From a virus, in IMG/VR virus record IMGVR_UViG_3300042484_002041, positions 32,001 to 96,000 of that record: 64,000 nucleotides of DNA, one strand, 5' to 3'. Made by a program: the position numbers and the translations under genes. Of this stretch, positions 14,284 to 44,163 are shown piece by piece; position 1 is the first letter of the stretch, and the number at the start of each line of letters is the position of its first letter. The notes below the pieces were generated by a model, which did not search any database, had not been told where the DNA came from, and saw only the letters and a list, made by a program, of their open reading frames with translations.

Positions 14284-14358
14284 GGGCCATTAATTCAACG
14301 GTTAGAATAGACGACTCATAATCGTTCAACGAGTGTTCGACTCACTCATGGCCTACCA
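14284..14358 (+). tRNA. tRNA-Ile2/Met (CAT), probably lysidine-type Ile2
   Basis: GGGCCAT/ATGGCCT acceptor, GACGA-CTCATAA-TCGTT anticodon arm like bacterial ileX, TTCGA, ACCA. Confidence 0.85.
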
Positions 14359-18040: not shown

Positions 18041-18069
18041 TTGACAAGGAATAAATAAAAGCATATAAT
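18041..18069 (+). promoter_or_regulatory. sigma70 promoter P1 of the tRNA region
   Basis: perfect TTGACA-17nt-TATAAT. Confidence 0.9.
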
Positions 18070-18079
18070 TGACACTGTT

Positions 18080-18205
18080 ATGAAAAACTTCACACTATCA
18101 CTCTTATCCAAGCACGAACAGATGTGCCCCCGCGCCACCACATGGCTAGGTCCGGTATCATATATTCGCGCATTCGAGAATAGTGATACCAGGGGGTCTG
18201 AGTAG
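18080..18205 (+). CDS. putative attenuator leader peptide (41 aa, all 20 amino acids)
   Basis: MKNFTLSLLSKHEQMCPRATTWLGPVSYIRAFENSDTRGSE*; starts 10 nt after the -10 box; last codons overlap the antiterminator arm. Confidence 0.7.
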   Translation: MKNFTLSLLSKHEQMCPRATTWLGPVSYIRAFENSDTRGSE

Positions 18206-18265
18206 ACTGAGTCGTAAGATTCAAATACACAGACCCTGGCTCGAAAGACCCAGGGTTTGTCTTTT
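18189..18265 (+). terminator. attenuator: alternative antiterminator/terminator hairpins
   Basis: ACAGACCCTGG (18229-39) pairs with either CCAGGGTTTGT (18250-60, then CTTTT) or CCAGGGGGTCTG (18189-200). Confidence 0.75.
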
Positions 18266-18317: not shown

Positions 18318-18319
18318 AA

Positions 18320-18640
18320 GGCGCTAGGGAATTAAAAATCCTAGCAAAGTGTGATAAGAGGGAACGAGGCCCTCGCTCTGCACTTTAAACAATGGAGCAA
18401 ACGGGCGTGTTAGGGGCATAAAATCTGTGGCGGGAACGCAGAGAGTCAGATCCTAATAGTAAAGTACATTGGTTGTCAGTGTGCTTTACTATACACATTT
18501 TTTGTAAAAAAGAGTGTGTACAGAGAAGCGCGCCATGATCTAATCTGAAGTCCAAACATCTGATGCGGACGGAACCTGTGTGTTGATTATGCTGCACACC
18601 TCGCAGCACGGAGCCAGGATAGCGTGTTTCTCTGTACCTA
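18320..18640 (+). ncRNA. structured non-coding leader of the tRNA operon
   Basis: series of hairpins with G:U pairs, including long stems 18456-18492 and 18518-18637; no credible ORF. Confidence 0.55.
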
Positions 18641-18650
18641 CTTAATTAAA

Positions 18651-18726
18651 GTCTGGTTCGTCTATCGGTTTAGGACGCTGCCCTTTCAAGGCGGAAAGAC
18701 GGGTTCGATTCCCGTACCGGGCACCA
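18651..18726 (+). tRNA. tRNA-Glu (TTC)
   Basis: cloverleaf, CTGCC-CTTTCAA-GGCGG, CCA. Confidence 0.92.
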
Positions 18727-18732
18727 AATAAT

Positions 18733-18808
18733 CTCTCCCTAGTTCATGTTGGCAGAACACTGGTCTCCAAAACCAGAGAGCGCGGATCGTCACCGTGGGG
18801 GGAGGCCA
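18733..18808 (+). tRNA. tRNA-Trp (CCA)
   Basis: CTGGT-CTCCAAA-ACCAG, CCA end. Confidence 0.9.
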
Positions 18809-18825
18809 AACTTTAAGGAACTGAT

Positions 18826-19605
18826 ATGAAAATCGGTATGTTCGGCGATAGTTATATTGCATACCTAAAAAATACTTGGATAGAGCATCTTAACTCTAAA
18901 TCTCAAGACTACAAGATTCAAACTTACGGCAAAGGCGGATCAAACTTATTCTATGCTATAGATCAGTTCAATCAAGCAGTTGATGTAAGAAAGAAAAAAT
19001 ACGATGTTGTTGTTTTTACATTCACATGGCACCAACGATGGTACAGTGCATGGCGGTATAGAAATGAACAATATTGTGCTTTTAGCGAATCAAGAAAATT
19101 TAGTACATATCAGTCTGTTGTCGAGGCGCACGATCCTTCTATTTACAACGACGATACGGATGCCGAATTTATAGCAACTATCCCGAAATTCTACGAATAC
19201 ATGTACGATGATCGGTGGACTAGATTTAATTACGAATTAGAAGTTAAGTATATTTTAGAACTACCGGATCGTTATCCGGATACCAAGTTTATTTTCTTGC
19301 CAAATACAGAATATTCACAAGACCTAGCAAAGAAACATTTCAACAAGGGTGTATTAGTTGATTTTGCATTTGAAACTGTTAGTATCTCGGAACCCGGGGC
19401 GCCAGCCAAGCTCAAGCCCGGGGAGAGAATTAATGTCGAGCGTGACAACCGACTCGGGCATTTAAATCAAAGCAATCATCGTGCAGTCGGTGAACTAATG
19501 TATGACATAATTTCTAACTACCAGGCAGTGGAAAATAAGATTTATCAAGTTGATTTTGATAAATTTGATATGATATTCCCTACCAAGTCTGTTAGCACAA
19601 CATAA
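18826..19605 (+). CDS. SGNH-like protein inserted in the tRNA array
   Basis: FGDSY, GGSN, GHLNQSNH. Confidence 0.6.
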   Translation: MKIGMFGDSYIAYLKNTWIEHLNSKSQDYKIQTYGKGGSNLFYAIDQFNQAVDVRKKKYDVVVFTFTWHQRWYSAWRYRNEQYCAFSESRKFSTYQSVVEAHDPSIYNDDTDAEFIATIPKFYEYMYDDRWTRFNYELEVKYILELPDRYPDTKFIFLPNTEYSQDLAKKHFNKGVLVDFAFETVSISEPGAPAKLKPGERINVERDNRLGHLNQSNHRAVGELMYDIISNYQAVENKIYQVDFDKFDMIFPTKSVSTT

Positions 19606-19611
19606 GTAAAT

Positions 19612-19686
19612 CGCGGGATAGGAAAGCAGTAATCCGCTTGGCTCATAACCAAGAGATCGGCAGTGCGAGTCTGCCTCCCGCAACCA
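19612..19686 (+). tRNA. tRNA-fMet-like (CAT)
   Basis: C1:A72 mismatch (CGCGGGA/TCCCGCA), CTCATAA loop, ACCA. Confidence 0.85.
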
Positions 19687-19691
19687 AGTTT

Positions 19692-20330
19692 ATGAAACCA
19701 TATTTAATAGTGTACCAAGGCGGAACCTGCGGCAATTTAATGGCAGGCTTAATTCATACGCTACAAACAAATACCGCAGTCGAAGTACGGCAAGATGGAT
19801 CACTACACGAACAGAGGCATGGACCGGTGCACGTATACTATCCGTGGAAAATTCTAATAGAAAATGATCTAAATAAAAATTATAACACTGCACTAACAAA
19901 TATTTTTATTACGCACGATAGAAATATTAGAGACTTTGCATCTAGTAACGATTTAACAGTTATTAAAATCGTATACACAGACGACTCGAAGAAGTTAATT
20001 CGTCAGTTAGTATCAGAAAAAGCACAATTAACTAACCTAAAACAATGGTATCTATCACTTCCGGCCTTGCCGTTCAAGGACGTTGATTTAGATAACATCA
20101 ATGATGATACTAGAGTAGTCAAGTACCTTTATCGATGCTTAGATGATCGTATAGATAACTTTATGGACGCAGTAACATATTATCATCATACTGTTAATTT
20201 TGAAGATATTTGGACAGACAATGAAAATTTACTCAACCAATTGAGTAACATAACTGGATTAAAAAGTAACGAAAAAACAGTGCAATTAATTCAAAATTAT
20301 GTTACTATCAATAATAGATTGTATAAATGA
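19692..20330 (+). CDS. AT-rich hypothetical protein (sulfotransferase/P-loop-like)
   Basis: ATG after the tRNA; YQGGTCGNLM N-terminus. Confidence 0.55.
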   Translation: MKPYLIVYQGGTCGNLMAGLIHTLQTNTAVEVRQDGSLHEQRHGPVHVYYPWKILIENDLNKNYNTALTNIFITHDRNIRDFASSNDLTVIKIVYTDDSKKLIRQLVSEKAQLTNLKQWYLSLPALPFKDVDLDNINDDTRVVKYLYRCLDDRIDNFMDAVTYYHHTVNFEDIWTDNENLLNQLSNITGLKSNEKTVQLIQNYVTINNRLYK

Positions 20331-20367
20331 GTAGCATATCAGCTACCAGATTTTTAAGTAGCACAAT

Positions 20368-20443
20368 TCCGGTCAAGCAAACACGGTGTAGGCAGAGGAC
20401 TGTTAATCCTTGAAGCCTGGTTCGATTCCAGGGACCGGAGCCA
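20368..20443 (+). tRNA. tRNA-Asn (GTT)
   Basis: GAGGA-CTGTTAA-TCCTT, GCCA. Confidence 0.9.
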
Positions 20444-20451
20444 CACATACT

Positions 20452-20528
20452 GCACAGATACCAAAGAGGCCTAATGGCATGGATTGCAAATCCGTTGTTC
20501 GTGAGTTCGAATCTCACTCTGTGCTCCA
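20452..20528 (+). tRNA. tRNA-Cys (GCA)
   Basis: TTGCAAA loop, U73 discriminator, CCA. Confidence 0.9.
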
Positions 20529-20541
20529 AACTCGACACAAC

Positions 20542-20635
20542 GGAAGCGTGGCAGAGCCCGGTTTAATGCACCTGACTTGAAATCAGACGAATGTAGCGAT
20601 ATGTTCCGTGAGTTCGAATCTCACCGCTTCTACCA
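20542..20635 (+). tRNA. tRNA-Ser (TGA)
   Basis: CTTGAAA loop, long variable arm, CCA. Confidence 0.9.
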
Positions 20636-20643
20636 GTTACTGG

Positions 20644-20713
20644 TTGACAATTAAATCCAAGTACGCTATACTAGAGTCATGTTGTCGGTAACTCAGCAAC
20701 AGCTCTTTAAAAA
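20644..20713 (+). promoter_or_regulatory. sigma70 promoter followed by boxA-like antitermination site
   Basis: TTGACA-17-TATACT, short hairpin, GCTCTTTAAAAA (20702-20713). Confidence 0.75.
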
Positions 20714-20742
20714 CACAAGCAAGCGTTTGTAAAGATACAATC

Positions 20743-20827
20743 GCCCGGGTGATGAAATGGTATACATAGAAGACTTAAAATCTTCCGCCGTAATGGCATG
20801 CGGGTTCGAGTCCCGCCCCGGGCACCA
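20743..20827 (+). tRNA. tRNA-Leu (TAA)
   Basis: GAAGA-CTTAAAA-TCTTC, variable arm, CCA. Confidence 0.92.
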
Positions 20828-20836
20828 AACATATAC

Positions 20837-20912
20837 AGGGGTTTCGCCAAGTTGGTAAGGCATCGGATTTTGATTCCGACATGCGGTGGTTCGAATCCAT
20901 CAACCCCTACCA
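20837..20912 (+). tRNA. tRNA-Gln (TTG)
   Basis: TCGGA-TTTTGAT-TCCGA, CCA. Confidence 0.92.
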
Positions 20913-20919
20913 AAATTTA

Positions 20920-20994
20920 GGTCTCAAAGTGTTCATGGACGCATACATGCCTGTCACGCATGAGGAAGGGGATCGTTACCCCTTGGGACCGCCA
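20920..20994 (+). tRNA. tRNA-Asp (GTC)
   Basis: CATGC-CTGTCAC-GCATG, GCCA. Confidence 0.9.
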
Positions 20995-21034
20995 ATTTTT
21001 CATTGGTGCTGTTAGTGATATAGATACCTTAGGT

Positions 21035-21109
21035 GTGACTGTAGTGTAGTGGTCTGCACATTGCTCTGTGAAAGCGATAGTATGGGATCGTTCCCCATCA
21101 GTCACCCCT
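21035..21109 (+). tRNA. tRNA-His (GTG), atypical (no encoded G-1, CCT instead of CCA)
   Basis: GTGACTG/CAGTCAC, CTGTGAA loop. Confidence 0.7.
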
Positions 21110-21160
21110 AAGTTATTTGCGATATGGGATTTTCCCCACTTCACCCCAACATTGTTTTAT

Positions 21161-21234
21161 ACCCGGTTAGCTCAAAGGTAGAGCAATGGCTTGATAAGCC
21201 ATAGACAGAGGATCGTTACCTTTACTGGGTACCA
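21161..21234 (+). tRNA. tRNA-Ile (GAT)
   Basis: ATGGC-TTGATAA-GCCAT, CCA. Confidence 0.9.
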
Positions 21235-21242
21235 ATATACAT

Positions 21243-21318
21243 GCTGCTTTAGCTGATGTGGTCATAGCGGAGGTTTGAAGAACCTTGGAACGTGGTTCGA
21301 TTCCACGAGGCAGCACCA
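21243..21318 (+). tRNA. tRNA-Phe (GAA)
   Basis: GAGGT-TTGAAGA-ACCTT, CCA. Confidence 0.9.
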
Positions 21319-21320
21319 GA

Positions 21321-22049
21321 TTATGGAGTTAGGTCTATCAAAGTTAACACCGAGCTGGCTAAATCTAAATTAGATTTAACTCCATGATGAGATAGGTCTC
21401 GAGCACGATCTAATCCTTTTAATGTGTTTAATTTTACTGGAACAAATTTGCACTCATTCAGTTTACTTACTTGTGCAAGTGCAAGCGTGTTCTTTTCAGA
21501 ATTTAACTGACTGTTAGTATCGACTGATAACCATGTTTTGTAAAACCCTGAATAATAACCAGGAGGAGACACAGGGGTTAAAAATTCTACATACTGTTCC
21601 CCGACTAGTTCAACCCTATGCATGTCAGGCAGTAACAATACTACTATCTTTGGTAAGATTTTAGGAATCCAATACGAGCCTAATCTGTATGCAGTATCGG
21701 TACTGCCGCCGCCCTGCCCAAGATTGTAACATTTTAAATTTAGATTGTCGGCAACAATTGTCGGCCAAGTGTGTTCGATAGGTAGGCCAACCCCAACAGT
21801 GTGACTGCAACCCAGAAATAAAATGCTAGGGTCGTTTGTAAACTCTTCGCACCTGAATGCAAAACTATTAAATTTGTAAGTTATTTCTTGGTTGATCCAT
21901 CCGTTGAGTTCCATCTCCGGACGTCTCAACTTTAAGTTTTCAAGATATCGATCTTCTGTATCCTGCGGTAGCCATTTTACAGTTCTGTTGGCTAATGACC
22001 CAGCGTTATTAAAGTTGTTGATGTAGCATGAATCGTAATTTATTTTCAT
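21321..22049 (-). CDS. SGNH-like protein, antisense inside the tRNA array
   Basis: LGCSHTVG, NLGQGGGS, RDLSHHG; TAAATA just upstream on the - strand. Confidence 0.7.
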   Translation of the reverse strand: MKINYDSCYINNFNNAGSLANRTVKWLPQDTEDRYLENLKLRRPEMELNGWINQEITYKFNSFAFRCEEFTNDPSILFLGCSHTVGVGLPIEHTWPTIVADNLNLKCYNLGQGGGSTDTAYRLGSYWIPKILPKIVVLLLPDMHRVELVGEQYVEFLTPVSPPGYYSGFYKTWLSVDTNSQLNSEKNTLALAQVSKLNECKFVPVKLNTLKGLDRARDLSHHGVKSNLDLASSVLTLIDLTP

Positions 22050-22073
22050 TGAAATATTTATTAGTGTAAGAAT

Positions 22074-22157
22074 GCGGACGTGATGTAATTGGTAGCCATG
22101 CGAGTCTTAGAAGCTCGTGCCTTGTGCGTGAGAGTTCGAGTCTCTCCGTCCGCACCA
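22074..22157 (+). tRNA. tRNA-Leu (TAG)
   Basis: CTTAGAA loop, variable arm, CCA. Confidence 0.92.
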
Positions 22158-22179
22158 TGAGATATATAGTAGTATAAAG

Positions 22180-22254
22180 GCCTGGTTAGCTCAGGGGTAG
22201 AGCGTCTCCTTTACACGGAGAGGGTCCGCGGTTCGAAACCGTGACCAGGTACCA
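22180..22254 (+). tRNA. tRNA-Val (TAC)
   Basis: TCTCC-TTTACAC-GGAGA, CCA. Confidence 0.92.
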
Positions 22255-22260
22255 AAGTTT

Positions 22261-22337
22261 GGTCGGGTATCTTAAGAGGAAGTAGAGCCTCCCTCATAAG
22301 GAGGAATGTGGAGCTTCGAGTGCTCTCCTGACCACCA
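22261..22337 (+). tRNA. tRNA-Met (CAT), elongator-type
   Basis: CCTCC-CTCATAA-GGAGG, CCA. Confidence 0.85.
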
Positions 22338-22351
22338 AGATAGTTTTATAT

Positions 22352-22425
22352 GGGCGTGTAGTATAATGGGATTACGACGGCTTTGCAAGCCGTTTATGGG
22401 AGTTCGATCCTCCCCATGTCCACCA
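22352..22425 (+). tRNA. tRNA-Ala (TGC)
   Basis: G3:U70, TTTGCAA loop, CCA. Confidence 0.92.
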
Positions 22426-22438
22426 TAGTTTTACAAAA

Positions 22439-22528
22439 GGAGAGCGGGCCGGACGGTAAGGCAACTGACTGCTAATCAGTAGAGTGTAGTAATATGCTCA
22501 CAGGGTTCGATTCCCTGGCTCTCCGCCA
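22439..22528 (+). tRNA. tRNA-Ser (GCT)
   Basis: ACTGA-CTGCTAA-TCAGT, long variable arm, GCCA. Confidence 0.92.
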
Positions 22529-22536
22529 AGTTTTTT

Positions 22537-22611
22537 CGGTCTTTAGTTCAATGGATAGAATACGTGGCTTCGAACCATGTGATGGGAGTTCGATCCTCTC
22601 AGGACCGGCCA
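22537..22611 (+). tRNA. tRNA-Arg (TCG)
   Basis: CTTCGAA loop, GCCA. Confidence 0.88.
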
Positions 22612-22641
22612 AGAGTTTTATACTACACAATAGGAAATAGT

Positions 22642-23112
22642 ATGTTAAAGGTAGATGTTCGAGAGGTTGAAGAATTCATGAGCCAGCAAGGCCCTAATAC
22701 TCGAGTCTACTTGGGTGCCGACAGCGAGCGATTCAAGGTCAACGGTGTTTGGTGGGCCGAATACACAGTAGCTGTGGTTATCCACATCAACGGTCGCAAT
22801 GGTTGCAAGATCTTTGGAGAAACTTCCAAGGAACGCGACTACGATCAAAAGTACAATCGTCCCAGCATGCGGCTCATGAACGAGGTGTACCGTGTCAGCG
22901 AAATGTTCCAGCGGCTGCAAGAGATACTGAAAGATCGAGAGGTCGAGGTGCACTTGGATATTAATCCTAGCGAAATGCACGGATCCAGCTGTGTGGTGCA
23001 GCAAGCAATTGGGTACATACGCGGCACTTGCAACGTGATCCCCATGGTCAAGCCAGATGCGTTTGCAGCCAGTTATGCGGCGGATAGGCTAAAGAGCTTG
23101 CTGGCTGCTTAA
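22642..23112 (+). CDS. RNase H-like YkuK/DUF458 family protein
   Basis: VYLGADS, RLMNEV, EVHLDIN, KPDAFAASYAAD; start moved past the tRNA. Confidence 0.75.
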   Translation: MLKVDVREVEEFMSQQGPNTRVYLGADSERFKVNGVWWAEYTVAVVIHINGRNGCKIFGETSKERDYDQKYNRPSMRLMNEVYRVSEMFQRLQEILKDREVEVHLDINPSEMHGSSCVVQQAIGYIRGTCNVIPMVKPDAFAASYAADRLKSLLAA

Positions 23113-23120
23113 ATAGTATC

Positions 23121-23849
23121 ATGCAACTTTGGGTATTTTTTGAGCCTGGCACCGGAGGTGATGGATTGTGTAACCTCCTGGAACAGTCAACAGACTGCAA
23201 TAGCCTAGGCGCAATAAAACAATGGCGTCCGCATCGTTATGTTGATGGTGATTTAAAATTTTGGATGCCAACTCCGGATGTAAAACATTGTTTTCGAAGT
23301 TCTGCTCCTTTTAAACAACACAAAAATCAGTTTCATAACAATTATGTTAACTTGGCTAATCAAGATCAAGGATTTGTAATTATACCATCTCACGGTATCA
23401 ACTTGCGGGCGTTAGAAACAAGCGACTGCCAGGATATATTGACTGCTAATCAAAAAAAAGTTTTGCTATTAAGTAAAGATCGAAAGGCTGCTTTACTTCG
23501 AGCAGAACGAAGTTGTTTACGCGAAATAAAGCCAGCAACGCCAGAATATCTTGACTGTCAGATAAAACAAAAAATTAATATTGATAAATTTGACTCGGTC
23601 GTCTACATTGAGGATTTACGATCGAATTTTGACATCTTTGACAACTTTTGTAACACATTAGGAATTGTTGCAGATAAAAATCACTATGACACCTACCTGC
23701 AACTAATCCGAAGAGAACTTTTTTTTGTATCACCAGGTATAGCATATCACAGTTCTAGAATTGACAAAAACGGAATTCTTCGGTATGATCAAGTTGATCC
23801 AGATATGGTAATAGGTCAAAGAAAAAAATTATTGTTTGACTTGATGTAG
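23121..23849 (+). CDS. AT-rich hypothetical protein
   Basis: TAAATA upstream; FEPGTGGDGL N-terminus. Confidence 0.55.
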   Translation: MQLWVFFEPGTGGDGLCNLLEQSTDCNSLGAIKQWRPHRYVDGDLKFWMPTPDVKHCFRSSAPFKQHKNQFHNNYVNLANQDQGFVIIPSHGINLRALETSDCQDILTANQKKVLLLSKDRKAALLRAERSCLREIKPATPEYLDCQIKQKINIDKFDSVVYIEDLRSNFDIFDNFCNTLGIVADKNHYDTYLQLIRRELFFVSPGIAYHSSRIDKNGILRYDQVDPDMVIGQRKKLLFDLM

Positions 23850-23878
23850 TTGACATCTAATAACAGTTGTGTTATAAT
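23850..23878 (+). promoter_or_regulatory. sigma70 promoter
   Basis: TTGACA-17-TATAAT upstream of tRNA-Gly. Confidence 0.85.
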
Positions 23879-23890
23879 ACATGAATGTAT

Positions 23891-23964
23891 GCGGGATTGG
23901 CATATTGGTTGTGTCCTAGCCTTCCAAGCTAGTCAAAGGAGTTCGATTCTCCTATCCCGCTCCA
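23891..23964 (+). tRNA. tRNA-Gly (TCC)
   Basis: CTAGC-CTTCCAA-GCTAG, TCCA. Confidence 0.92.
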
Positions 23965-23990
23965 TAAATATAAATTAACCGAGGTCTTTG

Positions 23991-24236
23991 ATGAATGTAA
24001 CCCTTAGTCGTGGTACCGGTATTAACACTGAAAAATGCGTGGAAAATGCCGGGGGGAATCGATACAATTTGGTGTTGATTGCTTGCCACCGTGCTCGTGA
24101 CATTGAACGTCATAACATCCAGCGCCAGAAGCAAGCCTACGAAAACCCAATTGTGAGTGCCTTGTTGGACGTGCAAAACGGTACAGTCGGCGAAGAGTAT
24201 CTCAAGCGAATTAAGACGCCTAACAGGCGGGTATGA
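23991..24236 (+). CDS. rpoZ: RNA polymerase omega subunit-like protein
   Basis: NRYNLVLIACHRARDI...NPIVSALLDVQNG matches RpoZ motifs. Confidence 0.7.
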   Translation: MNVTLSRGTGINTEKCVENAGGNRYNLVLIACHRARDIERHNIQRQKQAYENPIVSALLDVQNGTVGEEYLKRIKTPNRRV

Positions 24237-24242
24237 TGTAAT

Positions 24243-24316
24243 GCGGGTATGATGTAATGGTAACCTGAAACCTTGCCAAGGTTTATTCGCGAGTTCGATT
24301 CTCGCTACCCGCTCCA
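24243..24316 (+). tRNA. tRNA-Gly (GCC)
   Basis: AAACC-TTGCCAA-GGTTT, TCCA. Confidence 0.92.
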
Positions 24317-24321
24317 GGATT

Positions 24322-24396
24322 CTGCCCATCGTTCAACGGACAGGACATGGTTCTTCTAAATCCAGAATGGGGGTTCGATTCCCTCTGGGCAGACCA
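24322..24396 (+). tRNA. tRNA-Arg (TCT)
   Basis: CTTCTAA loop (one stem mismatch), CCA. Confidence 0.85.
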
Positions 24397-24419
24397 ATTT
24401 ATATACAAGGATACGCAAA

Positions 24420-24611
24420 ATGACTGAACAACAACAACGAGATGCTGCTATGGAAGAGTTCCTGGCCAAAGGTGGTAAGATTCAACAAGTGGCCACCGGC
24501 GTTAGCGGCAGGATCGAAGGCGTCAACTATTCAGCCTGGGGCGCACCGCGTAAAGCAGGTAGGCCCCCAAACGTGCCCGATACTGCCAAGGTGGACAAAA
24601 CACCAGTCTAA
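24420..24611 (+). CDS. small phage protein (EEFLAKGGKIQ motif)
   Basis: AAGGA RBS. Confidence 0.6.
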   Translation: MTEQQQRDAAMEEFLAKGGKIQQVATGVSGRIEGVNYSAWGAPRKAGRPPNVPDTAKVDKTPV

Positions 24612-24667
24612 TTTGCGATCTGCTGATATTTTTAAAAATTGGTTAAATAGTAAAAAGGATTTATATT

Positions 24668-24955
24668 ATGACTTTAACCAAAGCGGTAGTTGTTGTTTGG
24701 ACTATACCACTAGATACGGAGTTACCGGTACCGGAGACGGTGCCCACGTCCTGTATCACTGCGCTACAAGACAAACTGGCAGCAATGACCGCTGCTGGTC
24801 AAACAGACGGCAAGAAATATTGGTTCGCGCCCCAGGTTACCGAACACCGTTTTACTGATCAAGCAGCAGCTGAAGAATTTGTGTATTACCTAACTCAGGT
24901 ATTTGCGTGTAGTACAGATATTGATTCTACTCACATCAATCCCCTCTACCTCTAA
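24668..24955 (+). CDS. hypothetical protein
   Basis: TAAATA plus AAGGA upstream; terminator AGCGCGG-TTAAT-CCGCGCT-TTTT downstream. Confidence 0.55.
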   Translation: MTLTKAVVVVWTIPLDTELPVPETVPTSCITALQDKLAAMTAAGQTDGKKYWFAPQVTEHRFTDQAAAEEFVYYLTQVFACSTDIDSTHINPLYL

Positions 24956-25011
24956 GCGCCCGGGCTCAGATAACAGCGCGGTTAATCCGCGCTTTTTCAT
25001 GGTAGGCACGG

Positions 25012-25078
25012 TTGACAATTAATTCAACTTGCCGTATAATGCTTGTATGCGTTAAGAGATTAACGCGCTCTTTAACAA
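25012..25078 (+). promoter_or_regulatory. sigma70 promoter, boxB-like hairpin and consensus boxA
   Basis: TTGACA-17-TATAAT; GCGTTAA-GAGA-TTAACGC; GCTCTTTAACAA. Confidence 0.85.
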
Positions 25079-25100
25079 GTCGATGAAAAACATGACTGTG

Positions 25101-25215
25101 AGGTCATATTGAAGCTCTGGTGTAAATGGGCACATCCCCCAAGTACTAGTCTTGGAAAAACGGGGAGAGAACACGCGGCTCCAAAAGCAGATGCGAGTGA
25201 GTTTCAATATGATCT
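25101..25215 (+). ncRNA. stem-enclosed structured RNA
   Basis: AGGTCATATTGAAGCTC / GAGTTTCAATATGATCT 17-bp closing stem with G:U pairs. Confidence 0.55.
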
Positions 25216-25221
25216 TACATT

Positions 25222-25295
25222 GGGTTTGTAACTTAAAAGTAAAGTATCGGACTTTTAATCCGACTAAGAAGGAGCGTTACCTTCCAGACCTACCA
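25222..25295 (+). tRNA. tRNA-Lys (TTT)
   Basis: TCGGA-CTTTTAA-TCCGA, CCA; atypical T-loop. Confidence 0.85.
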
Positions 25296-25531
25296 TATAG
25301 AAATGCATTAGATCCCTTGTATGCTGCTGAACAGGCGCCCCGATCAGCGGCATATATCCCTTTTAGTGTGTTTCTATATGGTATGTGAGGGTGGTATGTA
25401 GGTTGGTAACCATTCCAGCGAGGACCGGGATTCCCAAGCCAGCAACACTGGCTACCATATAGAAACACATTATCATCATAACTGGTTGATAAAAGAGACT
25501 TGACCCTCTGTTAGTGTGTTTCTATATGGTA
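25291..25531 (+). repeat. alternating 20-nt inverted repeats (A-A'-A-A') enclosing three unique segments
   Basis: TACCATATAGAAA(TG/CA)CATTA at 25291 and 25453; TAGTGTGTTTCTATATGGTA at 25364 and 25512. Confidence 0.85.
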
Positions 25532-25621
25532 AGTATTTTAGGGAGTAATGCAGATGTCCTGCATTACTTAAACGACCAAGCTGAGCCGGTGTCCCTTAGT
25601 TAAATTAATGGAAAGTATAAT

Positions 25622-25706
25622 GGACAGGTGGGTGAGTGGTTAAAACCAGGAGACTGTAAATCTCCCGCCTCTGGCTACGTAGGTTCGAATCCTACCCTGT
25701 CCACCA
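25622..25706 (+). tRNA. tRNA-Tyr (GTA)
   Basis: GGAGA-CTGTAAA-TCTCC, variable arm, CCA. Confidence 0.93.
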
Positions 25707-25712
25707 AGATTT

Positions 25713-25787
25713 GGGCTGATAGTGATAATGGGAGCACAGGGCGTTTGCAACGCTTTAGTCGGGGTTCGATCCCCCGTCGGTCCACCA
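25713..25787 (+). tRNA. tRNA-Ala (TGC), second copy
   Basis: G3:U70, TTTGCAA loop, CCA. Confidence 0.9.
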
Positions 25788-25869
25788 AAATTTTGCGGTC
25801 GCGCCGCAGACGACTCAATACTTGGTCGTAACATCATGTATCTATTAGGTGAAAAGCCTATCCTTATTT

Positions 25870-25895
25870 GCCTCCATAGTTCAATGGATAGAACA
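25870..25895 (+). pseudogene. 5' fragment of a tRNA (Arg-like)
   Basis: GCCTCCATAGTTCAATGGATAGAACA: acceptor 5' strand and D arm only. Confidence 0.7.
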
Positions 25896-25896
25896 G

Positions 25897-25972
25897 GCCC
25901 CGGTAGCTCAGTGAATAGAGTACATTCCTCCTAAGAATGAGGTCGGGCGTTTGATTCGCCCCCGGGGCACCA
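25897..25972 (+). tRNA. tRNA-Arg (CCT)
   Basis: CATTC-CTCCTAA-GAATG, CCA. Confidence 0.9.
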
Positions 25973-25996
25973 TAACTCAAGTAAATAAACATCTAA

Positions 25997-26071
25997 GCCC
26001 CTTTAGCATAGTGGTACTGCAATCGCCTTGTAAGCGATAGAGCGTCTGTTCGATTCAGACAAGGGGCACCA
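25997..26071 (+). tRNA. tRNA-Thr (TGT)
   Basis: ATCGC-CTTGTAA-GCGAT, CCA. Confidence 0.92.
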
Positions 26072-26077
26072 CATTAT

Positions 26078-26153
26078 CTCCGTAAAGTGTTATCTGGTGG
26101 CATGCTGCGTTTGGGACGCAGTGGTGAAGGTTCAAATCCTTCTATGGAGACCA
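26078..26153 (+). tRNA. tRNA-Pro (TGG)
   Basis: CTGCG-TTTGGGA-CGCAG, CCA. Confidence 0.9.
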
Positions 26154-26427: not shown

Positions 26428-26468
26428 GAATCGGTTCCTTCTATGGCGATCCTCTAATAAATAGGATC

Positions 26469-42314: not shown

Positions 42315-42639
42315 TTATGTCACACTTTATGTTCCGGTTCTGGAATGATCCACAACGTACTGGTCGGTCAAGCCTGCACAACCAAATCCGTTGGCGGCAC
42401 TCTGCACAGGTACCGGGATATCAAGGTGACTCAACTGATCGTGGGCAACCGTGCCGTTTTAGTCGTTGGTATCGGTTGCCCAAACGAGCTCATCAATTGT
42501 ATTGGCGCACACATCAAAATGGCTGACATTCCGTGGTATATGTGGTTGATAGGGGTTGCTAATGTCAGCACTTGGGTGTATACTCTAGTAGTAGCGTGTA
42601 AAGATAGTAGTTATCGGGACAACGCTGAATAAATAAAAA

Positions 42640-42967
42640 GATTGTTGTAATTCCTCTGGATAGAAGGCATGTTGGACGGCGGATCATTCCCGCCCGGGTC
42701 CACCATAAAACATATTCCCATCGTGGAATCTGTGAAACCTAGATAGTATATAAGGCGGTTCCTGCAAGCCTTGAACTGAAAATGCTAGGTAAGGAGTATG
42801 TTTTATAATGGGCCCGAAGTGGTTTCGACAGCGTGAGATATTGAAGGCGGCAACACGGTAGGCGATGACCGTTAATCAAGCAAAACTCATAAATGCAAAT
42901 GATAGCGTTTATTCTTTAGCAGCCTAAACACTGCTTGGGGCGGCTGTGCCTCGCAACAGAAAATAGC
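42640..42967 (+). ncRNA. ssrA: circularly permuted (two-piece) tmRNA, tag ANDSVYSLAA
   Basis: 3' acceptor half (T arm GGCGG/CCGCC, CGGGTCC-ACCA ending 42705) precedes 5' half GGGCCCG (42810) with G3:U70; tag ORF 42895-42927. Confidence 0.9.
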
Positions 42968-42995
42968 AGAGAGGCTCTTCGGGGCCTCTTTTTTT
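42968..42995 (+). terminator. intrinsic terminator after ssrA
   Basis: AGAGGCTC-TTCG-GGGCCTCT followed by a T-run. Confidence 0.9.
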
Positions 42996-43011
42996 AACTC
43001 TTAGGAAACTT

Positions 43012-44163
43012 ATGCAATTGTTCCAGCAGCCGTCTGATCGGTATGGCTATTACACTGTGGGCAACGAGAAAATTTACAGCAAATTTGAAGCTGTCAAGCG
43101 ACACCAAAGTACCGGGCAATTCCCGCATTGGTACTTTCATGATGATGTGTTTGCCAGTTACGATTGGACACATGAACCCGAAGCGTCTCTCACTGACTTA
43201 TATCTTGCAAGGGCTCAACAACTACGAGAAAAATACGACTACGTTGTTATCTGCTTTAGTGGTGGTGCGGATAGTACCAACATGCTGCATGCGTTCTTAG
43301 ATAACGGTATACATGTAGATGAAGTTGTCACATGGCACACGTTCGAAGGCAATCATAACAGTAGCACTCACACTGATCAAGAAATAGCACAAGTAACGTT
43401 ACCGTACATGCAAAAGTTACAAGACGCCCATCCAGAAATCAAGTTTAGGGTCATTGATATGACTCGCCCTATATACGATTTCTTTCAAGATACAGACAAC
43501 ATTGATGACACAATAAATCAGTTGGCCCTGCCTAGTCCCAACAGCATGGCATGGACTAGGCCGTTTATGCTAGATAGATTCTATCTAGATTATATCCACA
43601 GCGGTAAAAAAATTGGGTTTGTCTTAGGCATGGAAAAACCACGGGTATGGCAAGTGGATGGCCGCTGGTGTGTTAGATTCTTAGATGTCAGCAATATTTT
43701 TTACATCGGGTCTAGTGCACCAACTGAAATGTTTTATTGGAGCCCAGAGCTGCCTCCCATGCTGATCAAGCAAGCGCATATAATCAAGCGGTATCTTGAA
43801 CATGCTACTGCTCAAACACCCTGGGTGCAGCACGAGTCTTCGGGACTGGCCTGTGTTGATCGTAATGGTCAAACATTATGGCTGCATCGTGACGGAGTTT
43901 CGTCTTTGATTTATCCAACGTGGGACCTTAGCACATTCCAAGTTGAAAAAACGCGAAGTCCGGTATTCATACCCAATACCACTTGGTTGTATGATAACGA
44001 AATAGATACTACTGCCAAACACTACCGCAATGGTATTCTACATTTTCGAGACTCGATTCCTGAGTATTGGAGAAATGATACCGATGATATCTTTCGTGGT
44101 ATTCGTGGTACTTGGAGTCGCCCTTACTACCTTGACAAACAAGTAGTCGATGCTCGGGCATGA
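43012..44163 (+). CDS. adenine-nucleotide alpha-hydrolase (PP-loop) superfamily protein
   Basis: ICFSGGADS PP-loop. Confidence 0.65.
   Translation: MQLFQQPSDRYGYYTVGNEKIYSKFEAVKRHQSTGQFPHWYFHDDVFASYDWTHEPEASLTDLYLARAQQLREKYDYVVICFSGGADSTNMLHAFLDNGIHVDEVVTWHTFEGNHNSSTHTDQEIAQVTLPYMQKLQDAHPEIKFRVIDMTRPIYDFFQDTDNIDDTINQLALPSPNSMAWTRPFMLDRFYLDYIHSGKKIGFVLGMEKPRVWQVDGRWCVRFLDVSNIFYIGSSAPTEMFYWSPELPPMLIKQAHIIKRYLEHATAQTPWVQHESSGLACVDRNGQTLWLHRDGVSSLIYPTWDLSTFQVEKTRSPVFIPNTTWLYDNEIDTTAKHYRNGILHFRDSIPEYWRNDTDDIFRGIRGTWSRPYYLDKQVVDARA

Follow-up and report, generated by a model that had tools for sequence, protein, structure and literature searches.

The 64,000-nucleotide window analysed here is part of a 167.6 kb phage contig with 28 tRNA genes and a tmRNA, in which a late sigma factor of the T4 type is also encoded. 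Between positions 18041 and 18265 of the window, on its + strand, lies the anatomy of a leader-peptide attenuator. The sigma70-type promoter P1 (18041-18069) matches the consensus at 12 of 12 positions with a 17-nt spacer, an ORF of 41 codons (18080-18205) starts 10 nt after it, an intrinsic terminator with a GAAA loop and an irregular U-tract (18229-18265) follows, and a tRNA array of 27 genes covering all 20 amino acids (18651-26153, + strand) stands downstream. An earlier note made from the letters alone had pointed out this promoter, ORF, terminator and set of 27 tRNAs, and all were recovered in the present analysis. The ORF, as had been described, uses all 20 amino acids, with 19 of them reached by codon 29 and the twentieth (Asp) at codon 36, and 33 distinct codons. 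The rough estimate of 1% for such a complete set agrees with our computed chance of 0.8-1.8% for 20 types in 41 codons under several nulls; the 33 distinct codons, taken alone, are unremarkable (P ~0.1). Every amino acid is represented within codons 2-36, as are the two codon boxes of Leu and the two of Ser, and the AGR box of Arg first appears at codon 38, beyond the modelled sensing window. Ala accounts for 2 of the 41 codons here and for 5% across the family of related leaders. The peptide belongs to an unnamed protein cluster of six members and has no match in Pfam, leader families included; the window leader and two relatives gave chance-level matches only against cultured phages, and no real covariance-model match for the element was obtained among the cis-regulatory RNAs of Rfam (T-box, riboswitches, leaders).

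P1 is conserved among close relatives and is the sole promoter in the 167.6 kb genome with such a short complete ORF after it. Inspection of the locus found no Shine-Dalgarno site before the ORF, in agreement with the near-leaderless start previously proposed, and the ATG lies 3-12 nt past the -10 box in 31 of the 62 family members that have a promoter; a leaderless or near-leaderless start appears to be a family trait. The P1 spacer also contains ATAAATA (18051-18057, + strand), a putative T4-type late promoter. Genome-wide this motif is depleted (18 copies vs about 43 expected) and each of its 7 copies on the minus strand has an ORF start no more than 70 nt away, which, together with the late sigma factor encoded by the phage, suggests that it functions as a late promoter. 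Late-like motifs are present in 25 of 62 family promoters, and the leader may be transcribed both early and late. ATAAATA stands exactly 12 nt before the ATG in five ORFs (e.g., window positions 26457 and 22061), a spacing that suggests leaderless late transcripts.

Between the genes of the array there are ORFs, promoters and one terminator. ARAGORN identifies 26 of the 27 tRNAs, and the remaining one, an atypical tRNA-Lys at about 25222-25295, was detected by Rfam only, with 52.9 bits. Upstream of the leader, at 14284-14358, lies the 28th tRNA of the genome, the third CAT tRNA, which we take to resemble the lysidine tRNA-Ile2; the ATA codon is absent from the leader, a single case. Inside the array, a 242-codon ORF on the minus strand (21321-22049) has its own late-type motif, and its transcription would oppose the direction of the array. 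Two direct and two inverted copies of a 20-nt motif are found between tRNA-Lys and tRNA-Tyr (25288-25534), and an inverted repeat lies at 25097-25219. The tmRNA (42592-43018) is permuted, two-piece and of the betaproteobacterial type, pointing to a betaproteobacterial host.

Scanning public collections by terminator sequence patterns only, and splitting the hits by the presence or absence of tRNAs downstream, we found that this arrangement recurs before tRNA genes, a recurrence that the earlier note had proposed to look for. Among the tRNA-linked sites, 86 of 94 have an ORF of 25-60 codons ending 18-40 nt before the stem, and the ORF includes at least 19 amino acids at 63 of the 94 sites and all 20 at 42. 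Such an ORF is present at 58 of 261 control sites lacking tRNAs, with 3 reaching at least 19 amino acids and none reaching 20. Since family members are related, family-wide counts overstate independence; when 79 distinct leaders were dereplicated to 37 at <45% identity, 10 of the 37 kept all 20 amino acids (0.69 expected) and 20 kept at least 19 (3.6 expected). Among the bacterial matches of the terminator pattern were ilvGMEDA attenuators that share this geometry and so provided a positive control that had not been planned; L478 is one of these loci, which have the terminator pattern and the stop-to-stem distance in common. The other two reading frames are closed in 105 of 110 cases, and indels come in multiples of three more often inside the ORF (29/67) than outside it (13/77), a conservation of frame that indirectly supports translation of the leader ORF.

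Folding places two mutually exclusive structures at the end of the leader. The terminator hairpin (18229-18260) reaches -19.9 kcal/mol, compared with -23.1 kcal/mol for an antiterminator, inner hairpin included, that overlaps the end of the ORF; a simple terminator scan missed 18229-18265, whose U-tract is irregular, and the fold of the whole leader has z = -5.1. The 5' strand of the antiterminator consists of the last four codons and the stop (18193-18204, + strand) and pairs with 18226-18237. This part of the pairing originally suggested stands, whereas 18189-18191 pair in an upstream hairpin instead. Across the family, antiterminator duplexes have a median z of -3.7 vs -0.7 in controls, and native duplexes are more stable than cross-locus ones (-14.4 vs -10.4 kcal/mol), so that the complementarity is locus-specific and the tail of the ORF co-varies with the terminator arm, a covariation that the earlier note had proposed to look for in relatives. 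A hairpin inside the ORF (18154-18190, + strand) folds at -15.2 kcal/mol vs -6.4 +/- 2.3 in shuffles and is a possible RNA polymerase pause hairpin. An upstream pause hairpin was not found as a family-wide feature, the median z across the family being -0.4.

The effect of a translating ribosome was modelled on nascent RNA without the 3' arm of the terminator, using footprints of +11, +13 or +16. Here, with footprints of +11 and +13, the modelled antiterminator forms as long as the ribosome stands at any of codons 2-36 and disappears once it reaches codon 37-38; the edge of the switch depends on the footprint, lying at 36-37 with +11/+13 and at 35 with +16. It also forms without any ribosome (0.86). 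The last "on" codon of this leader, codon 36, is that of the last new amino acid. The two coincide exactly in 12 of 28 modelled relatives, and in 46 of 53 relatives (25 expected under a strict null) the antiterminator core lies at least 2 codons beyond the point where the amino-acid set is completed, with the qualification that the modelled leaders are related and switch-position counts reflect a handful of lineages. These models, with and without a footprint, and the family duplexes reproduce the attenuator geometry and the direction of switching that the earlier note had drawn. At full-RNA equilibrium the terminator wins at every ribosome position in the model, so a kinetic trap would be required for read-through; with the ribosome at the stop, the modelled antiterminator re-forms in about 12 of 28 relatives. 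A reversed switch like that of pyrBI was rejected, the stop being ~24 nt before the terminator arm, past the modelled footprint.

We propose that transcription from P1 would give a near-leaderless RNA whose 41-codon ORF is translated by a ribosome following RNA polymerase. If the ribosome keeps pace past codon 36-37, it would cover the antiterminator strand, the terminator would fold, and transcription would stop near 18262-18265. A ribosome delayed anywhere within codons 2-36 is modelled to let the antiterminator fold first, and the polymerase would read on; an untranslated leader would be read through likewise. We give a probability of about 0.78 to the reading that this is a ribosome-coupled transcription attenuator, in which the element would monitor decoding capacity and supply additional transcription of the tRNA region. 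On this model the phage probably makes extra tRNA upon slow decoding of any codon, and we infer that the switch operates in vivo with a shortage of usable tRNA as its natural trigger.

The composition of the leaders bears on that trigger. Both Leu boxes are present in 44 of 49 leaders (35.6 expected), both Ser boxes in 51 of 53 (38.9 expected) and both Arg boxes in 33 of 37 (18.7 expected), with the same, weaker trend after dereplication (z 1.5, 1.7 and 2.6, respectively), and distinct codons exceed expectation in 50 of 53 leaders. Of the 112 amino acids served by the arrays behind low-diversity leaders, 102 occur in the matching leader, compared with 72.5 (max 89) after permutation of the leader-array pairs. 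Narrow leaders, as in L110, L413, L531, L544 and L019, fit small arrays (e.g., Ser/Gln-rich leaders before Ser and Gln tRNAs) and are a specialised form of the all-amino-acid switch. This match between leaders and tRNAs holds for amino acids and codon boxes, not for exact anticodons: exact codon-anticodon matching is not enriched either in the window (16/32 vs 13.5) or in the family (282/765 vs 297, z -1.2). The earlier idea that the leader samples every tRNA once therefore survives for amino acids and split codon boxes and fails for exact anticodons.

Whether the leader probes all amino acids and the majority of tRNA classes within ~36 codons and raises phage tRNA when host tRNA fails, for example, when an anticodon-nuclease defence destroys it, seems to us an even question. 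If it does, the element would monitor the entire tRNA pool and feed back on it, as a sensor made from RNA and one ribosome. Alternatively, the attenuator could be tuned to the general translation rate or to amino-acid starvation rather than to tRNA loss, with uncharged tRNA, antibiotics, ribosome shortage and failed initiation as inputs, and would then be a growth-state or timing device. This alternative overlaps the attenuator reading and differs from it in the natural trigger only. It fits the modelled read-through without any ribosome, the absence of exact anticodon matching, and the precedent of whiB7, which is activated by antibiotics and by defects that affect 18 of the 20 amino acids (PMC10274678). 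However, a pure rate sensor would need neither the over-represented split boxes of Leu, Ser and Arg nor the fit of partial-array leaders to their own tRNAs, and a lack of amino acids would presumably not be cured by more tRNA. We regard it as possible, and somewhat doubtful.

How much of the tRNA output passes through the switch is limited by elements behind it. P2 (18289-18317, + strand), a perfect sigma70 promoter 24 nt behind the terminator, bypasses the switch and is conserved in L013, L032 and L068; further promoters lie inside the array at 20644, 23850 and 25012, and all four had been listed before. A stringent-type GC-rich discriminator is present in P2, and as a general property it was rejected, since it is not family-wide (P = 0.19). 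After a hairpin behind P2 lies a boxA-like site (18380-18392, + strand), a putative rrn-type antitermination signal. Such hairpins with boxA-like sites at 18380, 20702 and 25067 follow internal promoters, like the leaders of rRNA operons, and the matches at 20702 and 25067 are better than that at 18380. Boxes of this type occur at 23 of 79 tRNA-linked vs 0 of 261 control loci. The last six tRNAs of the array lie behind a terminator at 24975-24993, which separates them from the rest. Together, P2, the internal promoters and this terminator mean that the switch cannot gate the whole array here, and the claim of a gate on a complete tRNA operon, against which the boxA sites also speak, has to be given up. 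Its accompanying caveat, that attenuation would modulate output, is borne out: in this phage, the arrangement of promoters indicates that the switch tunes tRNA output atop P2 and the internal promoters. Elsewhere in the family, a promoter precedes the first tRNA in 36 of 79 relatives and is missing there behind 23 of 55 near-complete leaders. True gating is most plausible in 14 relatives whose first tRNA starts no more than 62 nt past the terminator; in some of them a boxA comes directly after the U-tract.

The region 18318-18645, behind P2, appears as a conserved structured RNA, with a hairpin at 18456-18492, a long stem at 18513-18642 and compensatory changes across four close relatives; an Rfam search with it gave no match. 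The main target of the switch could be this structured RNA (18318-18640) or the first tRNA block rather than the whole array. The ~390 nt of conserved structured sequence before the first tRNA would favour this view, as would the segmentation of the array by internal promoters, boxA sites and a terminator. Against it, the leader covers all 20 amino acids, as does the whole array, partial arrays in the family carry matching partial leaders, and no strong + strand terminator is predicted from 18505 to 24975. We consider such a restricted target unlikely.

Completeness of the leader set can be separated from conservation of the peptide. In an alignment of 45 leaders with a median identity of 20%, 28 contain all 20 amino acids, compared with 3.3 (max 9) after column shuffling; two subfamilies behave alike (10/14 vs 2.1 and 11/16 vs 3.6). 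An amino acid lost at one position reappears at another. These statistics indicate that completeness of the amino-acid set is under selection, and the broad sampling first noticed in a single leader is thus maintained in the family. They also bear on a further alternative, that the ORF encodes a small functional peptide and is followed by an ordinary terminator, with the tRNAs transcribed from P2 alone. In its favour, P2 has a perfect and conserved sequence with a boxA-like site behind it, the peptide is predicted by gene callers, and it has some conserved residues, the central Trp among them. Yet a functional peptide would hardly retain a complete set of amino acids at changing positions with 20% identity, follow the downstream tRNAs in its composition, co-vary at its tail with the terminator arm, or stand so close to the first tRNA as in the 14 relatives (<=62 nt from the terminator), and we hold this explanation to be highly improbable. 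Chance, a random 20-amino-acid ORF beside a terminator, finds some room in a single-locus probability of just ~1% and is refuted by the recurrence, the controls and the family statistics, leaving it a negligible prospect.

Why phages carry large tRNA sets is debated, with codon bias and the replacement of destroyed host tRNAs as competing explanations. If the output of the attenuator proposed here rises only upon slow decoding, the phage tRNA set would be an on-demand backup, and the question becomes directly testable with a 230-nt reporter. Leader-peptide attenuation would then extend to tRNA genes, with an output that corrects the sensed signal. The leader could also be used as a small reporter of translation stress or of toxins that attack tRNAs, and could be tuned through single-codon recoding.

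The element shares a short ORF and an antiterminator overlapping the ORF end with the classical leaders trpL, hisL, pheL and ilvGMEDA (PF08046), and in those leaders the terminator likewise follows ~24-28 nt after the stop, the ilvL attenuators retrieved in our scan having the stop 24 nt before the stem. However, amino-acid leaders are enriched in 1-3 amino acids (11-13 types in ilvL) and precede biosynthetic enzymes, whereas the phage leader has 20 types and precedes tRNAs. An untranslated trp leader terminates, while the modelled phage leader reads through when untranslated. No protector hairpin that would enforce termination without translation was found in the leader, and the hairpin at 18154-18190 leaves the antiterminator forming in the model.

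A leaderless short ORF as sensor is also described for mycobacterial poly-Cys attenuators, on whose ORFs ribosomes stall when VapC4 cleaves tRNA-Cys (bioRxiv 10.1101/834739; PMC13096801). These sense one amino acid and have protein-coding targets, in contrast to all 20 amino acids and tRNA genes in the phage. The Anabaena trn operon, with 26 tRNAs, is a spare array induced under translational stress and is similar in this respect, but it is repressed by TrcR, a DNA-binding repressor (PMC8421152, PMC10272220), and attenuation or a leader is absent from PMC8421152.

The closest parallel is the uORF of whiB7/wblC in Actinobacteria, which is likewise diverse and in which complete translation leads to Rho-independent termination and stalling to antitermination (PMC10274678). 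The Mycobacterium smegmatis whiB7 uORF contains all amino acids except Cys (19), and removal of its single Trp codon blunts Trp sensing, so that one Trp codon suffices there for Trp sensing (PMC10274678); the broad-sensing design proposed for the phage has a precedent in this uORF. The whiB7 uORF is nevertheless enriched in Ala and lacks several amino acids in M. tuberculosis (PMC10274678), and whiB7/wblC regulation acts on a bacterial chromosomal gene for a transcription factor, whereas the phage leader, of ~40 codons and with its completeness under selection, has tRNA genes as its target. The phage leader lies neither upstream of whiB7/wblC nor is Ala-enriched, and we claim no homology. A literature search, with most subscription papers outside its reach, returned no account of attenuation of tRNA genes. 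Thus, compared to these known systems, the element is new in its tRNA target, in its phage setting and in the selection for completeness, and it is probably an unpublished variant of ribosome-mediated attenuation.
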